A DNA stretch of 37,378 nt, taken from a virus (Duplodnaviria; Heunggongvirae; Uroviricota; Caudoviricetes). Under the pieces are notes generated by a model. It was not told the DNA's origin. It saw only the letters and a list, made by a program, of their open reading frames with translations, and made no database searches. Shown in pieces: positions 1 through 37,378 of the stretch (position 1 is its first letter; each line of letters begins with the position of its first letter). The position numbers were made by a program, and so were the translations under genes. The DNA is taken from the IMG/VR virus record IMGVR_UViG_2667527994_000015; one strand, 5' to 3'.

Positions 1-258
1 ATGCAAACCGTTATTTTTGGTCGTTCGGGTTGCCCTTACTGTGTGCGTGCAAAAGATCTGGCTGAGAAATTGAGCAATGAACGCGATGATTTTCAGTATC
101 AGTATGTAGATATTCGTGCGGAAGGGATCACTAAAGAAGATCTACAACAAAAGGCAGGTAAACCCGTAGAAACCGTGCCGCAGATTTTTGTCGATCAGCA
201 ACATATCGGCGGCTATACCGATTTTGCTGCATGGGTGAAAGAAAATCTGGACGCCTGA
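1..258 (+). CDS. grxA: Glutaredoxin 1
   Basis: 85-aa ORF with CPYC active-site motif (GCPYCVRAKDLA); translation matches E. coli GrxA as I recall it; stop TGA at 256..258. Confidence 0.9.
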   Translation: MQTVIFGRSGCPYCVRAKDLAEKLSNERDDFQYQYVDIRAEGITKEDLQQKAGKPVETVPQIFVDQQHIGGYTDFAAWVKENLDA

Positions 259-267
259 TCGTCTGAC

Positions 268-301
268 AAGCCCTCGCGTTGAGGGCTTTACTGATTTTTT
301 C
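268..301 (+). terminator. Intrinsic terminator downstream of grxA
   Basis: GC-rich hairpin aagccctc-gcgtt-gagggctt followed by T-run ending near 300; the ybjM stop codon lies within the stem. Confidence 0.45.
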
Positions 302-665
302 TGTGCTGTGGTTTAAACAAACTACTGATAAATAAGAAACACAGTGCCCCCAGCGCACACCAGAACACCGCGCTTAGTAACCATGCCAGCTCTTGCCAGA
401 ATGAGCGCGTCGGTGAAAAAAACAGCCGCATAATGAGCATTGAACAGGGTGCCGCCAGCATTGCGCCAAATAGAGGTTTCAGGACTTCTCTACGCTGTGA
501 AAAGAAACTGGCAACTGCTCCAGGAAGAATGAAAAACAGCAAGCCGATTTCAGGATGCCCGGCAGCCCGAAAAGCGCCTTTCATGTGCGTCGCCAGAAAA
601 AGGCACACCACAATGAAGAGGACAAAACAGCAGATTGCCCCCGCCCAACGTTGTTTATGTTTCAC
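288..665 (-). CDS. ybjM: Inner membrane protein YbjM
   Basis: 125-aa hydrophobic ORF convergent with grxA; length and sequence consistent with E. coli YbjM from memory. Confidence 0.85.
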   Translation of the reverse strand: MKHKQRWAGAICCFVLFIVVCLFLATHMKGAFRAAGHPEIGLLFFILPGAVASFFSQRREVLKPLFGAMLAAPCSMLIMRLFFSPTRSFWQELAWLLSAVFWCALGALCFLFISSLFKPQHRKNQ

Positions 666-934
666 TCGTTCCTCCTGACACTGCGTCTATCGAACACATT
701 TTTCGCCAGTGTGGCGTTCAGTAAGATAAAGCCGCTTCGCATTCCATGCTAATATAGGCCAACGCAATTCATATAGCCGTTGATACCTAATGTGATTACA
801 CTAGTAAAATATATTGTTACTTTACTATCGTTTAGGTGCGCTGAATGAATCTGCGCCCTGAATTCTGGTAAAACACATTATCGTAAATTAGCATTTCTTT
901 CAACAGCTTACTAGTAAACAAGAAGTTAGCCTCC

Positions 935-2620
935 GTGAATATAAACGTCGCCGAATTGTTAAATGGGAATTACATTCTGTTATTATTTGTGGTCCTCGCG
1001 CTTGGGCTATGTCTCGGAAAGTTACGACTTGGTTCGATCCAACTGGGTAATTCCATTGGCGTTTTAGTCGTATCGCTGTTATTAGGCCAACAACATTTCA
1101 GCATTAACACCGATGCGCTTAATCTTGGCTTTATGCTGTTTATTTTCTGCGTCGGGGTCGAAGCCGGACCGAACTTTTTTTCCATTTTTTTTCGCGATGG
1201 GAAAAATTACCTAATGTTAGCACTGGTGATGGTTGGCAGTGCGCTGGTGATCGCCTTAGGGTTAGGTAAGCTGTTTGGCTGGGATATTGGCCTGACGGCC
1301 GGTATGTTAGCAGGCTCTATGACGTCGACACCGGTTCTGGTCGGTGCTGGCGATACACTGCATCATTCCGGCATGGAAAGCAGGCAGCTCTCACTGGCAC
1401 TGGATAATCTGAGCCTCGGGTATGCCTTAACCTATTTAATCGGTCTGGTGAGTTTGATTGTTGGTGCGCGTTACTTGCCGAAATTGCAGCATCAGGACTT
1501 ACAGACCAGCGCCCAGCAAATCGCCCGCGAACGTGGCCTGGACACTGATGCCAACCGTAAGGTTTATTTACCGGTGATCCGCGCCTATCGCGTCGGCCCG
1601 GAGCTGGTGGCCTGGACCGACGGCAAAAATCTGCGTGAACTGGGTATTTATCGACAAACCGGCTGCTACATTGAACGTATTCGACGTAACGGGATTCTGG
1701 CAAATCCAGACGGTGATGCCGTGCTACAAATGGGCGATGAAATAGCGTTGGTAGGCTATCCCGACGCCCATGCCCGACTCGATCCCAGCTTCCGTAACGG
1801 TAAAGAAGTTTTCGATCGTGACCTTCTCGACATGCGTATCGTCACTGAAGAAGTGGTCGTTAAAAACCATAACGCTGTAGGTAAACGTCTCGCACAACTG
1901 AAGTTGACCGATCACGGTTGCTTCCTTAACCGCGTCATTCGTAGCCAGATTGAGATGCCGATAGATGACAACGTCGTGCTTAACAAAGGTGACGTTTTAC
2001 AAGTCAGCGGTGATGCCCGTCGCGTAAAAACCATCGCCGATCGCATCGGCTTTATCTCGATTCACAGCCAGGTCACTGACCTGCTGGCATTTTGCGCCTT
2101 CTTTGTTATTGGGCTGATGATCGGGATGATCACCTTCCAGTTCAGCACATTCAGTTTCGGCATGGGGAACGCTGCCGGGTTGTTATTCGCCGGAATTATG
2201 CTGGGCTTTATGCGTGCTAACCACCCGACCTTCGGTTACATTCCGCAAGGTGCATTAAGCATGGTGAAAGAGTTCGGCTTGATGGTGTTTATGGCAGGCG
2301 TTGGTCTGAGCGCCGGTAGCGGTATTAATAACGGCCTGGGCGCGATTGGCGGTCAGATGTTGATTGCCGGATTAATTGTCAGTCTTGTGCCCGTGGTTAT
2401 CTGTTTCTTGTTCGGTGCTTATGTATTGCGAATGAACCGCGCACTGTTGTTCGGCGCAATGATGGGCGCACGCACCTGCGCGCCGGCAATGGAGATCATC
2501 AGTGATACAGCTCGCAGTAACATCCCTGCGCTGGGCTATGCGGGCACCTACGCAATCGCCAACGTCCTGCTGACGCTGGCAGGGACAATCATCGTCATGG
2601 TATGGCCAGGATTAGGATAA
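935..2620 (+). CDS. ybjL: Putative transporter YbjL (AAE-family membrane protein with central TrkA-C-like soluble domains)
   Basis: 561-aa ORF starting with GTG (MNINVAELL...), hydrophobic N- and C-terminal halves flanking a soluble middle; matches E. coli YbjL from memory. Confidence 0.9.
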
Positions 2621-2732
2621 AACTGAAGTTGCCCTGAAAATGAAATTTTTTTGCACAACCGCAGAACTTTTCCGCAGGGCATCAGTCTTAATTAGTGCCA
2701 CTGCTTTTCTTTGATGTCCCCATTTTGTGGAG

Positions 2733-2777
2733 CCCATCAACCCCGCCATTTCGGTTCAAGGTTGATGGGTTTTTTAT
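2733..2777 (+). terminator. Intrinsic terminator downstream of ybjL
   Basis: Inverted repeat cccatcaacc ... ggttgatggg followed by tttttt at about 2770..2776. Confidence 0.5.
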
Positions 2778-2833
2778 TGCCTGAAATTTATGCCTTTTAA
2801 AATCATGATGTTAGAAGCACTGTTTTTTAACGA

Positions 2834-2855
2834 TGGCGACAAATTGGCGGCAGCG
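2834..2855. repeat. attR core (tggcgacaaaTtggcggcagcg)
   Basis: 22-bp sequence repeated at 37339..37360 with a single mismatch (t vs g at position 11); lies immediately next to the ogr stop codon, as attP does in P2. Confidence 0.6.
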
Positions 2856-3074
2856 TCAAAGAGAGAGCGCCACCTGTCCTGATTTCATTGGATGCGGCTG
2901 AACCGGATTTGACTCTTTTGGCGTTGCAATCGAACGAACAAAAGTTTCATGGGTAACAAAAGTATGGCTGCAGTTAATGTTCTGGCACTGGTTGTAACGC
3001 TCTTTGGTCAATGAAGATACCTGAAAACTGCTGCGAGTATGGGCGGCACTTCCACACAGTGGGCAAATCATCAT
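2856..3074 (-). CDS. ogr: Late gene transcriptional activator, Ogr/B family zinc-finger protein
   Basis: 72-aa product from the internal ATG (MMICPLCGSAAHTRSS...CQNINCSHTF), a C4 zinc finger; position between D and att as in P2. The ORF track shows a longer 83-aa version from an upstream start. Confidence 0.8.
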   Translation of the reverse strand: MMICPLCGSAAHTRSSFQVSSLTKERYNQCQNINCSHTFVTHETFVRSIATPKESNPVQPHPMKSGQVALSL

Positions 3075-10144: not shown

Positions 10145-10711
10145 TCAGGGAGATTTATTGCTCTTATTTGCCGGAAATTTTCGATAAATGGTAGAAACGC
10201 CTACATCAAAAATCAGTGCAATACGCTGTCTTGATTCTCCGGCCTCGAGTAAACGTCCAATCTGTGCCCACTGTTCAGTGGTCAACTTAGGACGGCGTCC
10301 ACCTACTCTGCCTTTAGCACGAGCTGCAGCCAGCCCTGCCCGGGTACGTTCAACTATCAGTTCGCGTTCCATTTCAGCCAGGGCACCCATGACATGAAAA
10401 AAGAAACGGCCCATTGGGGTACTAGTATCAATACTGTCAGTCAGGCTTCGGAAATTCACACCACGCTGGCGCAACTCTTCTATCAGCGTAACAAGATACC
10501 GCATACTGCGCCCCAACCTGTCCAGCTTCCAGACAACCAGCGTGTCTCCTGCCAATAGTGTCCTGAGCAGTTTTTTAAGCCCCGGTCTGTCGGACTTAGT
10601 GCCACTGATTTTGTCCTCAAAAATCCGCTCACATCCCGCGCAGTTCAGCGCATTACGTTGCAAATCGGTGTTCTGGTCATTTGTTGACACGCGTACATAG
10701 CCAATAAGCAT
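10145..10711 (-). CDS. Site-specific DNA invertase, serine recombinase of the Gin/Pin/Cin/Hin family
   Basis: N-terminal resolvase/invertase catalytic region (MLIGYVRVSTNDQNTDLQRNAL) and C-terminal HTH (GVSTIYRKF); placed beside an invertible tail-fibre segment. Start taken at the second ATG (10711), which has an AGGGAG SD 6 nt upstream; the ORF track begins at 10717. Confidence 0.9.
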   Translation of the reverse strand: MLIGYVRVSTNDQNTDLQRNALNCAGCERIFEDKISGTKSDRPGLKKLLRTLLAGDTLVVWKLDRLGRSMRYLVTLIEELRQRGVNFRSLTDSIDTSTPMGRFFFHVMGALAEMERELIVERTRAGLAAARAKGRVGGRRPKLTTEQWAQIGRLLEAGESRQRIALIFDVGVSTIYRKFPANKSNKSP

Positions 10712-10766
10712 GATCATCTCCCTGAATAAAAATAGGGGATGATGCCAGTTAGCCGTAATCGCTGCA

Positions 10767-10792
10767 TTTTCTTAAACGTTGGTTTGGGAGAA
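10767..10792. repeat. Left crossover site (gix/hix-like) of invertible tail-fibre segment
   Basis: ttttcttaaacg-tt-ggtttgggagaa: two 12-bp half-sites around a 2-bp core; inverted copy of inner half-site at 12600..12611 with matching core. Confidence 0.6.
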
Positions 10793-11140
10793 GCGGCTAA
10801 AAGGAATGTAGGTACAGGGGCGAATCAGATACCTGATATGAGCCTGTTCGCGTCAAGTAATACCGCAACGGCTGCTGCGCAAAAATTTCCGTCTGGATTA
10901 ATTTTACAGTGCGGTCAGTTGAATGGCTCCCCGAATGTATCTTCAACATACGGGATGAGGTTCCCGATGACATTCTCAAGAGTCCTTGCTGTCACAGTTA
11001 CATTGAACGTTACTGGCGCGTCAGGGCAGCCGACTGTATCGGCGACAAATGTCAATAACACTGGATTTAATATTACAGTGTCGCCCGGTTCAGGATATGG
11101 TTCATCTGCTGATGCGTATTACATTGCAATGGGATATTAA
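10769..11140 (+). CDS. Alternative tail-fibre C-terminal cassette (silent in this orientation; no own start codon)
   Basis: Open frame reading ...GLGE-AAKRNVGTGANQ... to a stop at 11140; joins in frame to the constant part of H only after inversion of 10780..12612. Confidence 0.6.
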   Translation, partial: FLNVGLGEAAKRNVGTGANQIPDMSLFASSNTATAAAQKFPSGLILQCGQLNGSPNVSSTYGMRFPMTFSRVLAVTVTLNVTGASGQPTVSATNVNNTGFNITVSPGSGYGSSADAYYIAMGY

Positions 11141-11144
11141 CGAA

Positions 11145-11564
11145 ATGTCATATTTTTATTCTGCATCGACAAACGGATTTTATTCGACTGAATTTCACGG
11201 CACCAATATTCCTGATGATGCAGTGGAAATCTCGGAATCAGAGTGGAAAACACTGATTAACTCACAGAGTGTAACAAAAATGATTACCTGTGGTGAGAAC
11301 GGTCACCCTGTCATTGTTGACCGTCCTTCTCCAACACCAGAACAATTAGCCTTAATAAATGATGAAAAGAAATCTGCACTGATAGCAGAGGCAACGAATG
11401 TAATAGCGCCGCTTCAGGATGCGGTTGATTTAGGTATGGCAACAGATGATGAAACGAAACTGTTACTGGCATGGAAAAAATATCGCGTGCTATTGATGCG
11501 TATTAATACTTTAACAGCACTCGATATTGAATGGCCTACGCCTCCGGCAGTTCAGGCCAGATGA
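11145..11564 (+). CDS. Tail fibre assembly protein (alternative copy inside invertible segment)
   Basis: 139-aa ORF starting MSYFYSASTNGFYSTEF..., typical N-terminus of P2 G / Mu U-type tail fibre assembly chaperones; immediately downstream of the alternative fibre cassette. Confidence 0.75.
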   Translation: MSYFYSASTNGFYSTEFHGTNIPDDAVEISESEWKTLINSQSVTKMITCGENGHPVIVDRPSPTPEQLALINDEKKSALIAEATNVIAPLQDAVDLGMATDDETKLLLAWKKYRVLLMRINTLTALDIEWPTPPAVQAR

Positions 11565-12147
11565 CATCCGGCGCGGTGCTGGTATCTGTTGCCGTCACCG
11601 CGTCAATGTAATCCAGCACAGCGTTAAGTCGGGTGTTTTCTGGCTGCGTCAGCTTCCGCCCGGCCTGCAATTTCAGTTGAATCAGACTGATGGAAGCCAT
11701 TGCAGTATCAATCAGCGACTGGCGTTGTGCTTCTGCTGCATCTACTGCGGCGCTATGCTGTGCATCGGTATCCGTCACCCATTTCTCACCATCCCATTTA
11801 TCGTATGGTGTTAACGGGGCGATAGTGGTTGTATTATCAGGGTAATCACCCGGAGCTGTGATTTCTTTTGATTCTCCTGTTTCGGTGCTATAGATGATTT
11901 CACCGCGATGGTCTGACACATATTCCCATGAGTTAAAATCTGCAGAACGGCAGATTGCATAACCAGCTTTATGTGTAACTGGTGCATCTAAACAAGAACA
12001 TGCCGGGATACCGACGCCAACCGCAAGATATTCAGTTGATGTGGAAATATATTCCCGCGTTTCTCCGTTATAGTTGTAAACGGTAATGAAGCCAGCCTCT
12101 GTGGCAAATCCGTTTTCATCCAAAGTGATTTTTTTTGTGGTCATCAT
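11536..12147 (-). CDS. G: Tail fibre assembly protein gpG (copy expressed in current orientation)
   Basis: 203-aa ORF overlapping the H stop (ATGA); its 3' end converges on and overlaps the alternative assembly gene by 29 nt. Confidence 0.8.
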   Translation of the reverse strand: MMTTKKITLDENGFATEAGFITVYNYNGETREYISTSTEYLAVGVGIPACSCLDAPVTHKAGYAICRSADFNSWEYVSDHRGEIIYSTETGESKEITAPGDYPDNTTTIAPLTPYDKWDGEKWVTDTDAQHSAAVDAAEAQRQSLIDTAMASISLIQLKLQAGRKLTQPENTRLNAVLDYIDAVTATDTSTAPDVIWPELPEA

Positions 12148-13661
12148 GCTGCCCTTACAATGTAGTTAAATGCAATGTTACGTGGCCTTGTTTCTGCTGA
12201 TGTTCTTGCACTCCTGGATAAATCAAGTGTCACATCATAGTAACTAAATGCATTACCAGTTGATGGAGCGGCATATTTAACCCCAGAACTAGAACCAACA
12301 TTAAAAACTCCAGATGCTGAGGAAGCTGACCCCATAGTGTTATCAATCAGAGAACCCGTAACATTTTGCATAGCGTCAAGTTGTTCGCTTAATAAAGCGC
12401 GTCCACTATCAACATCACGCCCGTCATCCCAGCCACGAATAAATTCACCTCGTAAATCAGGCAATTTATTTGTCGGATAAGCCTTTGCCAGTTCCGGGTA
12501 TTCTTCAGCAGAAAAAACCGCACCGTTGCATTTCAGCCAGCCTGTTGGAGGTGTCTCAGAAGGCCACGGAACAGGCGCACCAACAGGTAATGCAGAACCT
12601 TCTCCCAAACCAAGGTATGTGAGAAGACCAGCTACATCCTTTCCACTCAAATTAGTCAGCGTATTGTCCAGCGGTTGTTTACCTGCCAGCGCATTAAGCA
12701 TTGTCGTGGCAAAGTTCGGGTCATTCCCCAACGCTGCCGCCAGTTCGTTCAGTGTATCCAGTGCCGCAGGTGCAGAACCCACCATTGCCGCAATCGCCGA
12801 TTTCACAAATGCCGTGGTGGCAATCTGTGTATTGTTGACCGACTGTGCCGCAGTAGGTGCGGTTGGCGTTCCGGTGAGTGCCGGACTCGACAGCGGCGCT
12901 TTCAGTGCCAGCGCATTGTTAATGGTGGTACTGAATTTCGGATCATTGTTAATGGCTGCGGCTATTTCTTTCAGCGTGTCCAACGTGGCTGGCGCACCAT
13001 TAATAAGAGCCGTCAGAGCCGCCTGAACAAACGCGGTGGTCGCAATCTGCGTGGTGTTATTCCCTGCGGCTGGCGTTGGCGCTTTGGGTGTCCCGGTAAA
13101 CGTCGGACTTTCTTTGGGTGCATACTGTGAATGCGGGTCCGGTGCGGCAAGATGTTTTGCCATCTGATCATCCGCGTACACCTTCAGCTCCAGTGCCTTG
13201 TCATCCACATACTTGCGGGTTGCCAGCACTACGGCAGGGTCGATTTTCAGGGTGATATTGTCCGTGCTGCTGGTAATCAGCACCATGCGCACGGTCTGAG
13301 TGCGCCCGCTACCTTCAGCCAGTTGCGGCTTATAGCTTTCCGGGCAGTTGCCCACGGCAATCAATGCCCCGGACTCATCAAACAAGCCCACTTCACGTAT
13401 CCACCAACCGCCCTCGTTTTCAGGGATCACATGTTCGGCAATAATCTGGCTGCTGTTCTGCGGGTCGATATAGAGCATATTCAGCGCAGCCCGGCGTTTC
13501 TCATTTACCAGTGCAGTCTGCTTTGAGTCTGGCGTTGGCAATACTCCGCCGCCATCGCCGACCGCCATATGGGTAATTTTTAGCGGCACACCGAGCGCGG
13601 CGGCGCTGGCAAGTTTCGCCGCGCCAATATCCGTCAGCAGGGTATAAAATTTTGTGCTCAT
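12144..13661 (-). CDS. H: Tail fibre protein gpH, with invertible C-terminal portion
   Basis: 505-aa ORF; conserved N-terminus typical of P2 H; internal ~70-aa tandem repeat; C-terminal ~150 aa lie inside the invertible segment. Confidence 0.9.
   Translation of the reverse strand: MSTKFYTLLTDIGAAKLASAAALGVPLKITHMAVGDGGGVLPTPDSKQTALVNEKRRAALNMLYIDPQNSSQIIAEHVIPENEGGWWIREVGLFDESGALIAVGNCPESYKPQLAEGSGRTQTVRMVLITSSTDNITLKIDPAVVLATRKYVDDKALELKVYADDQMAKHLAAPDPHSQYAPKESPTFTGTPKAPTPAAGNNTTQIATTAFVQAALTALINGAPATLDTLKEIAAAINNDPKFSTTINNALALKAPLSSPALTGTPTAPTAAQSVNNTQIATTAFVKSAIAAMVGSAPAALDTLNELAAALGNDPNFATTMLNALAGKQPLDNTLTNLSGKDVAGLLTYLGLGEGSALPVGAPVPWPSETPPTGWLKCNGAVFSAEEYPELAKAYPTNKLPDLRGEFIRGWDDGRDVDSGRALLSEQLDAMQNVTGSLIDNTMGSASSASGVFNVGSSSGVKYAAPSTGNAFSYYDVTLDLSRSARTSAETRPRNIAFNYIVRAA
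12600..12625. repeat. Right crossover site (gix/hix-like) inside gene H
   Basis: ttctcccaaacc-aa-ggtatgtgagaa; first 14 nt are the exact reverse complement of 10779..10792; core dinucleotide complementary to the left site. Confidence 0.6.
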
Positions 13662-16085: not shown

Positions 16086-16131
16086 ATGGATATAGTTAAT
16101 TAAAAGAAAGCGGCTTTCCTTTAGTATTGTT

Positions 16132-16149
16132 TGTGTGATAAACAGTACA
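16132..16149. promoter_or_regulatory. Putative late-promoter activator binding site upstream of V (P_V)
   Basis: Minus-strand tgtactgtttatcacaca = TGT-N12-ACA, differing at only three positions from the P_F copy; centre only about 55 nt from the V ATG, so the leader would be very short. Confidence 0.4.
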
Positions 16150-16169
16150 AAACGGATAGTGAGGCCATC

Positions 16170-17459
16170 ATGAAGAAACAAACACACGAAGTTTTTGGTA
16201 TTTCACCAACGATTCTTGCTGATTCATATGTAGACAGAGGAAATCTTGATAAGGAAATCAGTAGAAAATTACGCCGACCAATACATCTCGCCTTAAGAGG
16301 GGAATCCAAATGTGGTAAGTCATGGTTAAGACAAAAGAACATACCTAATGCTATTGTTGTACAATGCAGATTAAAGACAACCGTTTTAGATATATATATA
16401 GATATTCTATCTCAATTAGGTATAAGCCTTGTGCTAGAGAGAACCGAAAAAGATACAATTAAAGGCGTAATGGAGGGCTCTGCTGCAGGAGGCATTGGTC
16501 TTATAGCAAAACTAAAGGTTAAATTTGGACTTGAGACCTCTGAAGAGGAGGTAATAAAAAAAGGAAATGTTGGTCAAGATATTAATGATTTGAGATTTAT
16601 TGCAGAAATAATTAACGAAGCAGGAAGAAAAGTAGTTATTGAAGATTTTCACTACTTAAACACTCGTGAACGACAAATATTTGCTTATGACTTAAAGGCG
16701 CTTTGGGATTATGGTTGTTTTTTCGTAATCATTGGTGTTTGGACAAAAACAAACCTACTAATTTATTTGAATTCTGACCTTGGTTCTCGCATAGAAGAAA
16801 TTCCCATATCATGGTCTAGAGCCGATCTTGAACAAGTAATAATAAGTGGATCAGAAACTTTAAAAGTTAAGTTCTCAGATCATATAAAGAGATGCATCCT
16901 TGATGATTGCTATGGTAATGTTGGGATTTTACAACAACTAGCCTTAAACATTCTTGACGAGACAGGAATTGATGAGGAATGTACAACATTAACGATGTTA
17001 GATGATCAAGAAAAATTCGTTGATGCAGCCATGAAATATGCTGAACAATTAAATTCTCGATATCAAAAATTTGCTAAAGATATATCATCAGGAATACGTA
17101 AAAGAACAGAAACCACTGGCATTTATGCTCATGCCATGGCTGTAATAATGGACTCATCCGATAAAGAACTCATTCAAGGATTAGAGTTAGATACCATTTT
17201 TAAAATTGCGTCAAGAAGACAAAGTCGAATATTAAAAGGGAATCTGCGAACTGTACTTCAAAAAATTGAAGAGTTACAGGTTGATAGTGACGATAGAGGG
17301 TTAGTTCTTTCCTACAATGATGCAACTGATGAGGTCACTGCTATCGACAGAACCATTTTAATTTATCGAAAATATGTAACCATAAAATGGCCATGGGAGG
17401 ATCTGATTAACGAAGCAAAGGACAGCTATGGTGAGCAGAGTAGAATTTTTACCAATTGA
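16170..17459 (+). CDS. Hypothetical P-loop NTPase (accessory gene, antisense to late operons)
   Basis: 429-aa ORF from ATG 16170 with GTGAGG SD; Walker A GESKCGKS and Walker B-like VVIEDF; visibly AT-rich codon usage unlike flanking phage genes; sits between S and V. Confidence 0.7.
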   Translation: MKKQTHEVFGISPTILADSYVDRGNLDKEISRKLRRPIHLALRGESKCGKSWLRQKNIPNAIVVQCRLKTTVLDIYIDILSQLGISLVLERTEKDTIKGVMEGSAAGGIGLIAKLKVKFGLETSEEEVIKKGNVGQDINDLRFIAEIINEAGRKVVIEDFHYLNTRERQIFAYDLKALWDYGCFFVIIGVWTKTNLLIYLNSDLGSRIEEIPISWSRADLEQVIISGSETLKVKFSDHIKRCILDDCYGNVGILQQLALNILDETGIDEECTTLTMLDDQEKFVDAAMKYAEQLNSRYQKFAKDISSGIRKRTETTGIYAHAMAVIMDSSDKELIQGLELDTIFKIASRRQSRILKGNLRTVLQKIEELQVDSDDRGLVLSYNDATDEVTAIDRTILIYRKYVTIKWPWEDLINEAKDSYGEQSRIFTN

Positions 17460-26292: not shown

Positions 26293-27327
26293 CTATACCA
26301 AAGTTTTTTTAATCGCTCTCAATGTTGTCATTAAATTTTCGCCATACGGTGTTAAAGTCCAATAAGTACCTTTATCTTTAACACTTCTACTCTTTTCACT
26401 TTTAATAATTAACCCAAGCGCCCTAAACTGCACTTTTATTGTTTGGAAATCAGAATTAGATACTTTTAAAGATAATAAATTCATATCTTTAAAATCCTCA
26501 TAGATGATATCTTGAACTGCATTTCGCACACAGTTATTTAAAGCACTATATAGCTTATCATCCACTATCTCATCTATCATCAAAGGCGAAACATATGAAA
26601 AAATATCGTTCCAGCTTAATTTGACCTTATCGGTATATTCTTCACCATTATGTCTCCATTCTGTAGGCGACACACAGAATTCATAATCCAATTCAAAAAG
26701 CTCATCTCCTTGAGATAGTTTTTCTGCACCTGCAGGCGCTTCAGTCATACTTGATACAAGTTGACTTTCAAGCTCCTCAATTCGCCTTTTTAATTTCAAT
26801 ATTTCCTTTGCATCACCATCATTAGTTACTAAATTTCCTTTAACCCACCCAATTGCAGGACATTCTTTAATTAGTCTAATCAAACTTCTGCTAACCTGGC
26901 TACCTAACTCTGCAGGAGACTCCCAAAAACGACATAATTTTGTTTTAACTAGCTCTTCGAAAGCCTTTAGTTTTTCTACGCCTTCAGGGTTTGACTCACA
27001 ACGTTTTGCGGGGAGGTTACTTTTATCTTTATGAATAAAACCTATAACTGGCTTACCAGTTTCCAAAGCATAACGATACTCCATTTCTGTATAGCTTATT
27101 CCATCAGGACCAATTGAACCATAACGCCCTGCCAAGATAACAATATAATAATCACTATCGTCAATTATTTTTTTTATTAAACTCCACTGATCACTATTTG
27201 TTGCTGGAAATAATTCCATTCCTGCTGGCATACAATCAAGCTCCAGCAGTGCTTGCATTACTTCCTGTCTTTCTTCTTCAAGATCAGCAAAAGTTGAACT
27301 AACAAAAACCTGATATCTTTTATCCAT
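26293..27327 (-). CDS. Hypothetical protein with DUF4062-like N-terminal domain (accessory gene between portal and cos)
   Basis: 344-aa ORF; N-terminus VFVSSTFADLEEERQ and YYIVILAGRYG fit my recollection of the DUF4062 consensus; central coiled-coil; AT-rich. Confidence 0.7.
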   Translation of the reverse strand: MDKRYQVFVSSTFADLEEERQEVMQALLELDCMPAGMELFPATNSDQWSLIKKIIDDSDYYIVILAGRYGSIGPDGISYTEMEYRYALETGKPVIGFIHKDKSNLPAKRCESNPEGVEKLKAFEELVKTKLCRFWESPAELGSQVSRSLIRLIKECPAIGWVKGNLVTNDGDAKEILKLKRRIEELESQLVSSMTEAPAGAEKLSQGDELFELDYEFCVSPTEWRHNGEEYTDKVKLSWNDIFSYVSPLMIDEIVDDKLYSALNNCVRNAVQDIIYEDFKDMNLLSLKVSNSDFQTIKVQFRALGLIIKSEKSRSVKDKGTYWTLTPYGENLMTTLRAIKKTLV

Positions 27328-27403
27328 TTGATGATTTCCACTGCACGTATAGATCTTTCAGGCGATTATATATACTTTTCTGAAAACTGTCAGTGAGCGC
27401 GCG

Positions 27404-27422
27404 CTCGTATCCCCGCCACGCC
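27404..27422 (-). other. Putative cos cohesive-end sequence
   Basis: Minus strand reads GGCGTGGCGGGGATACGAG, close to the 19-nt cohesive ends of 186/P2 (GGCG[T/A]GGCGGGGAAAGCA...) as I remember them; sits between Q and the old/tin-equivalent slot. Confidence 0.4.
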
Positions 27423-27460
27423 TGCCCGCTTTATGTAGTGGTTTTCATGCAGGTGCATGA

Positions 27461-27491
27461 CATAAGCAAAAGCCCGCCAGTTCTGGCGGGC
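27461..27491 (-). terminator. Intrinsic terminator of the two-gene accessory operon
   Basis: Minus strand gcccgccag-aa-ctggcgggc followed by ttttgctt, just downstream of the 4-TM gene. Confidence 0.5.
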
Positions 27492-27636
27492 CTCAGCAAA
27501 AACGATCCTAAAACGATCATGCGGATTCATGCAGCATAGACATGCAAAGCTTGTTAGAACGGTGATTCCCATGTTAAAGGAGGCTTACTCTTGTTGAGGT
27601 TAAACATCCACAGTAACTCCTGCCAATACGAACACT

Positions 27637-28173
27637 TTATTCATCATAGTGTTCTAATTTCGCTTTTGCTAAACGTCCATGTAAGTGATTAACAAAATGT
27701 AAATTATTCAAAATCAGGCTCATAACGCATTTTAATTGCATCCAGCTAATAAAGTAAATGAAGAAAATACCAATGTATTTAAACAAGTCTTTATTAGCTT
27801 GATAAACAGGTAATGCATAAAACACTGCCTTAACCAAAAAGAAAATTAGAATCCCAGCCATAACACAAGCAGATGTGATTATTGTATAAACTAATTTCTC
27901 TATTCTTGGTGAGTCATGCTCATTTTTTATATAACTTACATCATCCTTAACAATACTATTCATTGCATTCGGATATAAAAAACCGACCCATAAACCGACA
28001 ATAGTGAATATAGATGCTGAAATATTTATAAGCGCACCTAAAATATCTTTTGCATCATTATAGGAAAAACTTTTGAACGAAAAATAGCTTATAACGCAGC
28101 ACAAAACAACAGCAACAAAATTAATCGCCTGCTGTTTTGCAACTGTTATTATCAAACCTTCCGTTTCTGTCAT
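27637..28173 (-). CDS. Small integral membrane protein with four predicted TM helices (accessory operon gene 2)
   Basis: 178-aa ORF with four hydrophobic stretches; GGAAGG SD; its ATG lies 1 nt after the upstream gene's TGA (TGAtATG). Confidence 0.7.
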   Translation of the reverse strand: MTETEGLIITVAKQQAINFVAVVLCCVISYFSFKSFSYNDAKDILGALINISASIFTIVGLWVGFLYPNAMNSIVKDDVSYIKNEHDSPRIEKLVYTIITSACVMAGILIFFLVKAVFYALPVYQANKDLFKYIGIFFIYFISWMQLKCVMSLILNNLHFVNHLHGRLAKAKLEHYDE

Positions 28174-28174
28174 A

Positions 28175-29374
28175 TCAACCTTCCGCTATCTTTTTTGTGG
28201 ATGCAGCTTCAGATTCTTTAATGGATGCTTCCTCAGCATATTTTACTTCACTAATCAAATCATCACGAATTTTGTTTATTTCATCCAGTAAAAAACGCGC
28301 TGAATAATGCTCAAACCCATCCGAATCTTGAAGAGGAAGTTTAGTCCTGGCTACATAGCTACTGAGCCAAACCGGATTAGCACGATCAGCCAGTAAAAAA
28401 CCCACATCCCATTCAGACTCTTCACCTCTCATTGAGAAGAGATTTCGAAGCTCATCCGATGATGGTGCACCGTCAATTTTAACTTCAATTTTACGAGGCT
28501 GCTCCAAAACAGGAGGTGCCCCAATAAGCTTATTACGCTTTTCTTCACCCACCAGAGATGCTAAAGCTACACTTGTTAGCTTCAACAATGGTTGCCTTGT
28601 GTCATTTTGGTTTATTACCGTTGTATCCTTTATCAATGTGTGTGTAATTTTATGCCTTAACCTTTCAAAGTTTTCCTCAGCGGCTTTAAGTTTTGTTTCT
28701 TCCAATACAAACTTGAAGATACAGTTTATCTCATTTTTGCCATCTTTATATTGAAACTTAGTATTGTAGACATCCACACAACGACCAGGGGTCTTAGCTG
28801 ATTCAAATGTACGCTTAGATTTCGTTCTTTTACCTAACTTACTATTATTATTTACATGCTGAATGAAGTATTGTGCGAAGAGATAAGTATCAGCGAAAGA
28901 ATGGGGGAATCTGATTGATGCTATTTTATTCAACTCAGGAATAATCCAGTAATAGCAGGGTTCACCCCAAATTATTTTATCCTCACCATGTTCTCTTCCC
29001 GCCCTAATGGTTCCTTTACTATCACCACTTACTTTAGAACCGACCTTAATACCATGTATTCCGTTACCGTTCCCCACTTCACGGTATAAAACAATTACTG
29101 CATCTTTAGTCTGGCTGTCCCTCACAAGGCCTCGACTGTAAACTCGTGTTCGCAGAGGTTGTTCTTCTTTATTCCATGGGAGAGTCTGCTCAAAATTTTT
29201 ATCCTTGAGCCACCCTTCTAAATCGTCCAAAACCCCCATAAGATCGCCGAATTTATAATCAAGCTCTTCGGGTTTATTCTTTAACCGATAAAACCCACAA
29301 GCAGTAATATCAAAGAAGGTGATTGAGCCGTTGTCCACTAAAACTCCTTTTTGCCAAAGCAACACACGATACAT
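28175..29374 (-). CDS. Hypothetical 399-aa protein (accessory operon gene 1)
   Basis: ATG-initiated ORF with no motif I can recognise; AT-rich; translationally coupled to the 4-TM gene; no clear SD. Confidence 0.65.
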   Translation of the reverse strand: MYRVLLWQKGVLVDNGSITFFDITACGFYRLKNKPEELDYKFGDLMGVLDDLEGWLKDKNFEQTLPWNKEEQPLRTRVYSRGLVRDSQTKDAVIVLYREVGNGNGIHGIKVGSKVSGDSKGTIRAGREHGEDKIIWGEPCYYWIIPELNKIASIRFPHSFADTYLFAQYFIQHVNNNSKLGKRTKSKRTFESAKTPGRCVDVYNTKFQYKDGKNEINCIFKFVLEETKLKAAEENFERLRHKITHTLIKDTTVINQNDTRQPLLKLTSVALASLVGEEKRNKLIGAPPVLEQPRKIEVKIDGAPSSDELRNLFSMRGEESEWDVGFLLADRANPVWLSSYVARTKLPLQDSDGFEHYSARFLLDEINKIRDDLISEVKYAEEASIKESEAASTKKIAEG

Positions 29375-36325: not shown

Positions 36326-37378
36326 ATGGCTGTACGAAAACTCACCACAGGAAAATGGCTTTGCGAATGTTACCCCGCCGGACGTAGTGGGCGTCGTGTG
36401 CGTAAACAATTCGCCACCAAAGGCGAAGCACTGGCTTTTGAGCGTCACACGATGGAAGAAACCGAAGCAAAGCCCTGGCTAGGTGAATCAGTGGATCGTC
36501 GAACACTGAAAGACGTGGTTGAGCTATGGTTCAAACTACATGGTAAATCACTGACTGCTGGGCAGCATGTCTATGACAAATTGCTGCTGATGGTTGACGC
36601 TCTGGGCAATCCCCTTGCAACTGATCTCACCTCTAAAATGTTTGCCCACTATCGAGATAAACGCCTGACAGGTGAGATCTACTTCAGCGAGAAATGGAAG
36701 AAAGGAGCAAGCCCGGTCACCATTAACCTGGAGCAAAGCTATCTAAGTAGTGTTTTTAGCGAACTATCCCGCCTGGGCGAATGGTCGTATCCGAACCCAC
36801 TGGAGAACATGCGAAAATTCACCATCGCAGAAAAAGAGATGGCATGGCTTACCCATGAGCAGATTGTTGAATTACTGGCTGATTGCAAACGTCAGGACCC
36901 AATTCTGGCACTGGTAGTTAAGATATGCTTAAGCACAGGCGCACGCTGGCGAGAAGCCGTAAATCTTACTCGTTCACAGGTGACCAAATACCGAATTACC
37001 TTTGTAAGAACGAAGGGGAAGAAAAACAGAAGCATCCCTATCAGTAAAGAGCTTTACGAAGAGATCATGGCGCTTGATGGGTTCAATTTCTTCACAGACT
37101 GCTATTTTCAATTTTTATCCGTGATGGAAAAAACGTCTATCGTGCTCCCTCGCGGTCAACTCACACACGTTCTGCGCCATACGTTTGCGGCGCACTTCAT
37201 GATGTCGGGTGGAAACATTCTGGCCTTACAAAAAATTCTCGGACACCACGATATAAAAATGACTATGCGTTACGCACATCTGGCACCGGATCATCTGGAA
37301 ACGGCGCTCCGTTTCAATCCTCTGGCAACGCTGCCAAGTGGCGACAAAGTGGCGGCAGCGGTTGGCATTACCCCGTAA
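36326..37378 (+). CDS. int: Tyrosine integrase (186/P2 family)
   Basis: Start MAVRKLTTGKWLCECYPAGRSGRRVRKQFATKGEALAFE with GGAGGG SD; C-terminal HVLRHTFA...MTMRYAHL motifs; resembles 186 Int; last codons overlap attL core. Confidence 0.9.
   Translation: MAVRKLTTGKWLCECYPAGRSGRRVRKQFATKGEALAFERHTMEETEAKPWLGESVDRRTLKDVVELWFKLHGKSLTAGQHVYDKLLLMVDALGNPLATDLTSKMFAHYRDKRLTGEIYFSEKWKKGASPVTINLEQSYLSSVFSELSRLGEWSYPNPLENMRKFTIAEKEMAWLTHEQIVELLADCKRQDPILALVVKICLSTGARWREAVNLTRSQVTKYRITFVRTKGKKNRSIPISKELYEEIMALDGFNFFTDCYFQFLSVMEKTSIVLPRGQLTHVLRHTFAAHFMMSGGNILALQKILGHHDIKMTMRYAHLAPDHLETALRFNPLATLPSGDKVAAAVGITP
37339..37360. repeat. attL core (tggcgacaaaGtggcggcagcg)
   Basis: Direct repeat of 2834..2855 with one mismatch, inside the 3' end of int. 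Confidence 0.6.

Follow-up and report, generated by a model that had tools for sequence, protein, structure and literature searches.

The DNA analysed here, a window of 37,378 nucleotides filed as IMG/VR virus record IMGVR_UViG_2667527994_000015, is an Escherichia coli chromosomal segment in which a P2-like prophage is integrated next to ybjL-ybjM-grxA. This prophage very probably carries an intact two-state invertible tail-fibre segment of the Pin/Gin type. The segment is bounded by two inverted crossover sites, one adjacent to a serine invertase gene and the other located inside the tail-fibre gene H (Table 1). The constant N-terminal part of H lies outside the segment, while the interior consists of two opposed cassettes, each comprising an alternative fibre C-terminus and its assembly chaperone. 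Cassette A forms the expressed C-terminus of H and is about 88% identical at the nucleotide level to stfE of the E. coli K-12 prophage e14. Its chaperone is 88% identical to e14 TfaE and is currently expressed with H; the start of the chaperone gene overlaps the stop of H (ATGA). Cassette B has neither a promoter nor an N-terminus of its own and is silent in the present orientation. The chaperone genes of the two cassettes are convergent, with an overlap of 29 bp. Since the invertase lies outside the segment, the sites are inverted with matching cores, the constant fibre part is outside and two tip-plus-chaperone cassettes face each other, the locus belongs with the Mu G, P1 C and e14 P segments.

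Both 26-bp sites comprise two 12-bp half-sites flanking a 2-bp core and fit the pattern TTnTCnnAAACC. The sites are inverted relative to each other, their cores match (TT/AA) and their inner halves are identical, with a perfect 14-bp inverted repeat common to both (10779–10792 and 12600–12613). A repeat finder returned 10767–10793 against 12599–12625 (27 nt, 81% complementary) as the top inverted repeat within 9.5–13.5 kb, and the chance expectation for the palindromised 26-mer pattern with at most three mismatches was 0.00 in shuffles of the window. The half-sites resemble those of experimentally defined sites, gixL and gixR of Mu and cixL of P1, as taken from annotated records, and the best fit is to the pix sites of e14. 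A third crossover site, or a shufflon-like multi-inversion system, was rejected on the basis of full- and half-site searches, which gave only these two sites. Additional half-site-like matches at 11327, 24898 and 29600 have two mismatches and no partner half, and are within chance expectation.

The right site falls at codons 346–354 of H. Inversion of the segment in silico leaves residues 1–350 of H unaltered and joins them in frame to GLGEAAKRNVGTGANQ...AMGY, yielding a product of 469 amino acids. Thus, a full-length in-frame fibre is encoded in both orientations (505 amino acids now, 469 after inversion), and cassette B and its chaperone are still open reading frames. These results agree with an original prediction made from the sequence, which had placed a serine invertase beside a segment of about 1.83 kb (the open reading frame at 10145..10717 on the minus strand is present, and the segment measures 1831 or 1835 bp). 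It had also described inverted gix/hix-like 26-bp sites with a 14-bp perfect repeat and complementary cores, two alternative fibre C-termini with two convergent, overlapping chaperone genes, and a right site within H at LTYL/GLGE, all of which were found: the sites at the proposed positions and near-identical to e14 pix, the domains as Collar, Gp53-like_C and two Caudo_TAP, and the junction at ...LLTYL/GLGE.... The in-frame joining of the cassette upon inversion at the cores, on which that prediction had staked itself beforehand, is likewise borne out by the 469-residue product.

By its alignments, the recombinase is a member of the Hin/Gin/Cin/Pin subclass of small serine recombinases, and its nearest relative is e14 Pin rather than Gin. 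It shares 86% identity with PinE, 78% with P1 Cin (tblastn) and 75% with Mu Gin, and it matches the Gin crystal structures over its full length (PDB 3UJ3/4M6F; E = 1e-91 for 3UJ3). The Pfam domains comprise Resolvase (residues 5–137, 1.5e-51) and HTH_7 (residues 140–183, 1.2e-15). The catalytic motifs YVRVS(9)T and DRLGR are intact, and the stretches YVRVSTNDQ and WKLDRLGRS, which include the catalytic serine and the Arg/Asp/Arg cluster (equivalents of Gin S9, D64, R65 and R68), are identical in the Gin and PinE alignments. In Hin, residues K47/R48/K51 and Q151/R154/L155 contact Fis or the enhancer and are kept only in Fis/enhancer-dependent invertases (McLean et al., PMC3798978). The corresponding residues are conserved in the window enzyme as K46/K47/R50 (LK46K47LLR50) and as Q..RL in EQWAQIGRLLE, the positions having been assigned by hand from alignments with Gin and the Hin DNA-binding domain. 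The most likely start, judged from the sequence, is the ATG at 10711 (MLIGYVRVST...), because AGGGAG precedes it by 6 nt and the resulting N-terminus agrees with those of Gin, Cin and PinE. The family assignment of the original prediction, a Gin/Pin-type invertase, therefore stands with two refinements: the enzyme is closer to e14 Pin than to Gin, and its start is two codons downstream of that of the longest open reading frame. The gene is situated 55 bp from the proximal crossover site, just outside the invertible segment.

Both orientations of the segment occur in natural relatives. The E. coli prophages of ML35 and F404 are approximately 96% identical and of equal length over 6.7 kb. As deposited, they show 1379 mismatches between the sites and none within them. 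When the F404 segment is flipped at the homologous cores, the mismatches with ML35 drop from 1379 to 79, a density equal to that of the flanks. The two deposited arrangements are therefore related by precisely this inversion, and its breakpoints fall within the sites. In ML35, an intact H of 469 amino acids is annotated, equal in length to the in-silico flipped product, with which it shares 454 of 469 residues (96.8%). Junctions were further counted in 5,426 complete E. coli genomes. The junction of the H constant part with Collar was present in 481 records and that with the gp53-like tip, the expressed state of cassette B, in 6, while the junction of the invertase with the gp53-like tip, its silent state, was present in 9. 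Cassette B is thus silent and expressed at similar frequency (9 and 6).

Inversion of such loci has also been observed directly. Sequencing of single-colony cultures revealed coexisting orientations in e14 and in P2-like prophages of enteropathogenic E. coli (EPEC) E2348/69 (Goldberg et al., PMC4272514). The e14 segment flips at about 1:1 in culture, and the P2-like locus of E2348/69 (NC_011601.1 2977580-2979467 in Table S1 of that study) is 93% forward. Many P2-like phages and prophages carry the invertible module: 3,153 E. coli records match the region at some level, and a 'DNA invertase' is annotated next to tail-fibre genes in phage records. A 2024 preprint (bioRxiv 10.1101/2024.10.15.618418) likewise mentions DNA invertases, accompanied by inverted neighbouring genes, at the Z/fun hotspot of P2-like phages. 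The system is accordingly an ordinary, textbook one, already described in P2-like prophages among others.

From these relatives, we infer that the copy in the window flips as well. An alternative is that the architecture was inherited and that this copy could be frozen in one orientation, owing to a degenerate H-side site, a lost enhancer or an unexpressed invertase, such that only the Collar-type fibre is made. Several observations speak for such a fossil and against an active switch, although we consider it unlikely. The outer half-site in H (TTCTCACATACC) carries ATACC in place of AAACC, a change that might slow recombination. However, ML35 and F404, with their opposite orientations, both have this type of H-side site (GGTATGCGAGAA/GGTATGTGAGAA), and both cores and the inner half-sites of the window are perfect. 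A simple scan of 10712–10800 detected no consensus sigma-70 promoter upstream of the invertase, and promoter-like sites around the invertase and the crossover sites showed no excess over shuffles in the sigma-70 scan. The invertase reading frame is nevertheless intact, with all catalytic and Fis-contact residues kept. The excess of Collar-expressed over gp53-like-expressed junctions (481 versus 6) would also suit a locked switch, but this ratio is confounded by the many prophages that pair the Collar cassette with other partners, and cassette B itself is about equally often silent and expressed. The preservation of the silent cassette and its chaperone as open reading frames likewise argues against a fossil.

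The candidate enhancer, assigned here by homology, is another point on which an active switch can be challenged. The P1 record AF234172 annotates nt 19–90 of cin as 'enhancer of Cin-mediated C-segment inversion', and the homologous stretch of the window shares 78% identity with P1 and 72% with Mu. The G-N13-C 15-mers within this stretch sit at homologous positions, with candidate Fis cores at GTGTCAACAAATGAC (10690 to 10676) and GCGCGGGATGTGAGC (10641 to 10627). The first of these is approximately 97 bp from the crossover centre, and in Hin about 100 bp separate the enhancer Fis core from the crossover (PMC3798978). At synonymous sites, nt 19–90 are no better conserved than the rest of the invertase gene in the comparison with gin (8/22 versus 40/103) and only modestly better in that with cin (10/19 versus 41/110). 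Between gin and cin, the values are 12/19 in nt 19–90 and 39/108 elsewhere. The effect is weak and all of these counts are small, and the lack of a clear excess in the window is compatible with a lost enhancer. A simple Fis-motif scan (G-N13-C with an AT-rich centre) returned non-homologous candidates and missed the second homologous core, and was not relied on. Inversion at this locus is predicted, on homology, to depend on Fis and the enhancer.

A further possibility is that horizontal module shuffling or RecA-dependent recombination produced the inverted repeats and the opposed cassettes, with the recombinase serving in integration, excision or dimer resolution. Tail-fibre modules have clearly been exchanged, and P2-like phages have a cargo hotspot at the Z/fun slot (bioRxiv 10.1101/2024.10.15.618418). 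The lambdoid Shigella phage SfIV shares 95.8% identical DNA over 10774..12050, a stretch comprising cassette B together with its chaperone and the greater part of that of cassette A, and the homology begins exactly at the left crossover site. This suggests that the conserved site and its LGLGE junction are also a boundary for horizontal exchange of fibre modules. Nonetheless, the breakpoints between the natural variants fall at the 26-bp sites, and the recombinase is a 188-residue enzyme of the invertase class, 86% identical to PinE, and neither a large serine integrase nor a res-site resolvase. A role as the prophage integrase is ruled out by the separate tyrosine integrase at the far end of the prophage. 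The RecA route is countered by the 14-bp repeat, which by textbook standards is too short for efficient RecA recombination. We regard this explanation as very improbable. Some relatives carry IS5 or IS1 insertions (insertion sequences) inside the invertible region, and another EPEC P2-like prophage harbours a three-site, four-state version with 215-bp repeats (PMC4272514); together, these show that the module is evolutionarily plastic.

A site-specific inversion at this locus would proceed as follows. Invertase dimers would bind the two inverted 26-bp sites, and host Fis would bind the enhancer in the 5' part of the invertase gene, so that an invertasome would form on the sites and the enhancer. 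Staggered cuts at the 2-bp cores (10779–80 and 12612–13), followed by half-site (subunit) rotation and religation, would invert the 1.83 kb. The H promoter and codons 1–350 would remain fixed outside the segment. In the present orientation, H reads into cassette A, providing a 155-residue Collar-domain tip and the 203-residue TfaE-like chaperone. In the flipped orientation, it would read in frame into cassette B, providing a 119-residue gp53-like or lectin-like tip and the 139-residue chaperone. A lysogen population may thereby release virions with either receptor-binding tip, which would be a form of host-range bet-hedging.

Among known systems, the closest counterparts are the P segment of e14 and the P2-like locus of E2348/69. 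In e14, a cryptic prophage, the gene order (stfP/ycfK-tfaP-tfaE-stfE'-pinE) and orientation logic are the same as in the window. Its pix sites, CTCTCGAAAACC-TT-GGTTTGGGAGAA and TTCTCCCAAACC-AA-CGTTTATGAAAA, have inner halves identical to those of the window sites, and the invertase-proximal site matches at 25 of 26 positions. The likeness extends to PinE, TfaE and the 29-bp antisense tfa overlap. In contrast, the lambdoid element e14 is defective and its fibre gene truncated, whereas the switch in the window is part of a complete tail operon of the P2 type, in which H has its full length. Cassette B also differs in being gp53-like, and its chaperone shares only 34% identity with TfaP. The P2-like locus of E2348/69 has the same order as the window (tail protein tip, tfa, tfa, gp53-like tip, recombinase, tail sheath), an invertase-proximal site identical at 26 of 26 positions and a cassette A of about 89% nucleotide identity. 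It differs in being a remnant prophage, in which the H constant part is replaced by an integrase fragment, and its invertase is 77% identical to that of the window (145/188 residues).

The more distant systems share the design and diverge in detail. The Mu G segment likewise places a fixed Sc before alternative Sv/U and Sv'/U' cassettes, with gin outside next to gix (Sc, then Sv-U and U'-Sv', then gin), and employs 26-bp sites of the same design with a Gin 75% identical to the window invertase. Unlike the window segment, it spans 3 kb, has a GA/TC core, carries cassettes unrelated at the DNA level and U/U' genes without overlap, and belongs to a transposable Muvirus. In P1, cixL (CAATCCTAAACC-TT-GGTTTAAGAGAA) has the TT core, with the crossover annotated at its centre, and Cin (78% identical) contains the annotated enhancer homologous to 10622..10693 of the window. 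The P1 C segment differs in its length of 4.2 kb and in the position of cixL, at the 3' end of cin and not ahead of the gene. The Salmonella Hin/hix system, compared here through the literature, uses an enzyme of the same subclass, with the diagnostic residues and a mechanism dependent on Fis and an enhancer (PMC3798978), but inverts the promoter of flagellin genes and does not fuse alternative coding ends. A second invertase in LT2, cited in PMC4272514, is Fin, which belongs to the P2-like prophage Fels-2. Classical P2 has the order H-G-terminator-fun(Z)-FI without an invertible module; in the window, the Z/fun slot, flanked by the fibre chaperone and FI, is occupied by the second chaperone, the silent tip and the invertase. 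The original prediction had likened the locus to Mu G, P1 C and e14 Pin and had noted that classical P2 lacks such a system. The anatomy, the enzyme family, the sites and the two orientations in relatives support the former, and the P2 gene order confirms the latter.

In the antisense overlap of the two chaperone genes (11536..11564), each strand encodes a terminal W-P-x-x-P (EWPTPPAVQAR* and VIWPELPEA*), with TGGCCT/AGGCCA as inverted hexamers on either side. A 29-bp tfa overlap is also present in e14, ML35, F404 and EPEC, whereas U and U' of Mu are 28 bp apart. The cassette B chaperone and e14 TfaP, 34% identical overall, have the same C-terminal DIEWPTPPAVQAR. This is explained by the homology of the cassette A block to e14, which runs through the overlap as far as 11523. 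One weak stem was found between the convergent genes, at 11568–11582, and terminator-like sites there were not significantly above shuffles. That the overlap is a functional element of Pin segments and not a by-product of packing, acting as an orientation-independent transcription stop or in antisense silencing of the non-selected cassette, is a speculative idea to which we give little weight. In a related scenario, the silent cassette, preceded by in-frame ATGs at 10739 and 10742, could be expressed as a free lectin-like protein of 133 amino acids.

The silent cassette is also a source of annotation error. In homologues of 10781..11140 (L002 2276..2641 and L003 2276..2641), RefSeq/PGAP labels it a pseudogene ('phage tail protein, incomplete; missing N-terminus'), and in other genomes it is annotated as a free-standing 'gp53-like domain-containing protein' from an upstream ATG. 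These pseudogene and free-standing calls are a systematic annotation artefact of invertible fibre segments.

Table 1. Coordinates of the invertible tail-fibre locus and of other features in the 37,378-nucleotide window
Feature	Coordinates	Strand	Description
DNA invertase gene (Pin/Gin/Cin/Hin-type small serine recombinase)	10145..10711	-	188 amino acids plus stop; Pfam and homologues
Candidate Fis-dependent recombinational enhancer	10622..10693	-	Invertase nt 19-90; homology to P1 enhancer
Invertase-proximal 26-bp crossover site	10767..10792		TTTTCTTAAACG-TT-GGTTTGGGAGAA; core 10779-10780
Invertible segment, core to core	10779..12613		1835 bp (1831 bp between cores)
Cassette B, silent alternative H C-terminus	10781..11140	+	119 amino acids (GLGEAAKRNV...AMGY); Pfam Gp53-like_C (PF21882) 1.5e-14; weak H_lectin match
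Cassette B assembly chaperone	11145..11564	+	139 amino acids; Pfam Caudo_TAP 6.7e-30
Cassette A assembly chaperone	11536..12147	-	203 amino acids; Pfam Caudo_TAP 6.1e-32
Tail-fibre gene H	12144..13661	-	505 amino acids; present orientation
Cassette A, expressed variable C-terminus of H	12144..12611	-	Residues 351-505; Collar domain PF07484, residues 361-408, 2.4e-15
Crossover site inside H	12600..12625		TTCTCCCAAACC-AA-GGTATGTGAGAA; core 12612-12613; minus strand encodes LLTYLGLGE
Constant N-terminal part of H, outside segment	12614..13661	-	Residues 1-350; Pfam Phage_tail_fib N-terminal domain 2.4e-64
ybjL (aspartate:alanine antiporter family), ybjM, grxA	1..2900		Host flank; 99.8% identity
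DUF4062 protein	26293..27327	-	E = 1.5e-29
PDC-M18 component M18B (PADLOC candidate system)	27637..28173	-	E = 2.7e-18
PDC-M18 component M18A (PADLOC candidate system)	28175..29374	-	E = 5.9e-31
Tyrosine integrase	36248..>37378		Prophage end; runs off window at 37378

The host flank matches ybjL-ybjM-grxA in essentially all complete E. coli genomes and is directly followed by an ogr/Delta-like zinc-finger gene of the prophage, which spans from about 2.9 kb to the end of the window. The gene order is canonical for P2-like phages, with D, U, tape measure, E, FII and FI, then H, I, J, W and V, followed by the lysis, capsid and replication genes and the integrase. Positions 2890–25000 are 96–97% identical to Klebsiella and Escherichia P2-like phage records over 79% of the query. 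The prophage looks complete; it extends past the window end, and the attachment site on the integrase side is consequently outside the view.

Other P2 hotspots of this prophage hold candidate defence cargo. At the place taken by orf30 in P2, flanked by baseplate gene V and the tail-completion genes, there is a 442-codon open reading frame with a TTG start (16131..17459, plus strand). Pfam gave no match for this frame, but it shows a full-length match to PDC-S59, a candidate defence model of PADLOC (E = 1.9e-197). Three accessory open reading frames on the minus strand (26293..29374; the DUF4062 and PDC-M18 rows of Table 1) are located between the portal/terminase block and the replication genes, at the P2 old/tin hotspot.

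The mechanism, the enzyme family and the occurrence of such switches in P2-like prophages are established, and the locus matters for annotation and for phage biology. With the site and junction sequences, read data can be scored for orientation. The prophage can probably make two receptor-binding tips, of which a single assembly displays one of the two states, and this single-state view affects host-range prediction, prophage typing and tail-fibre engineering.

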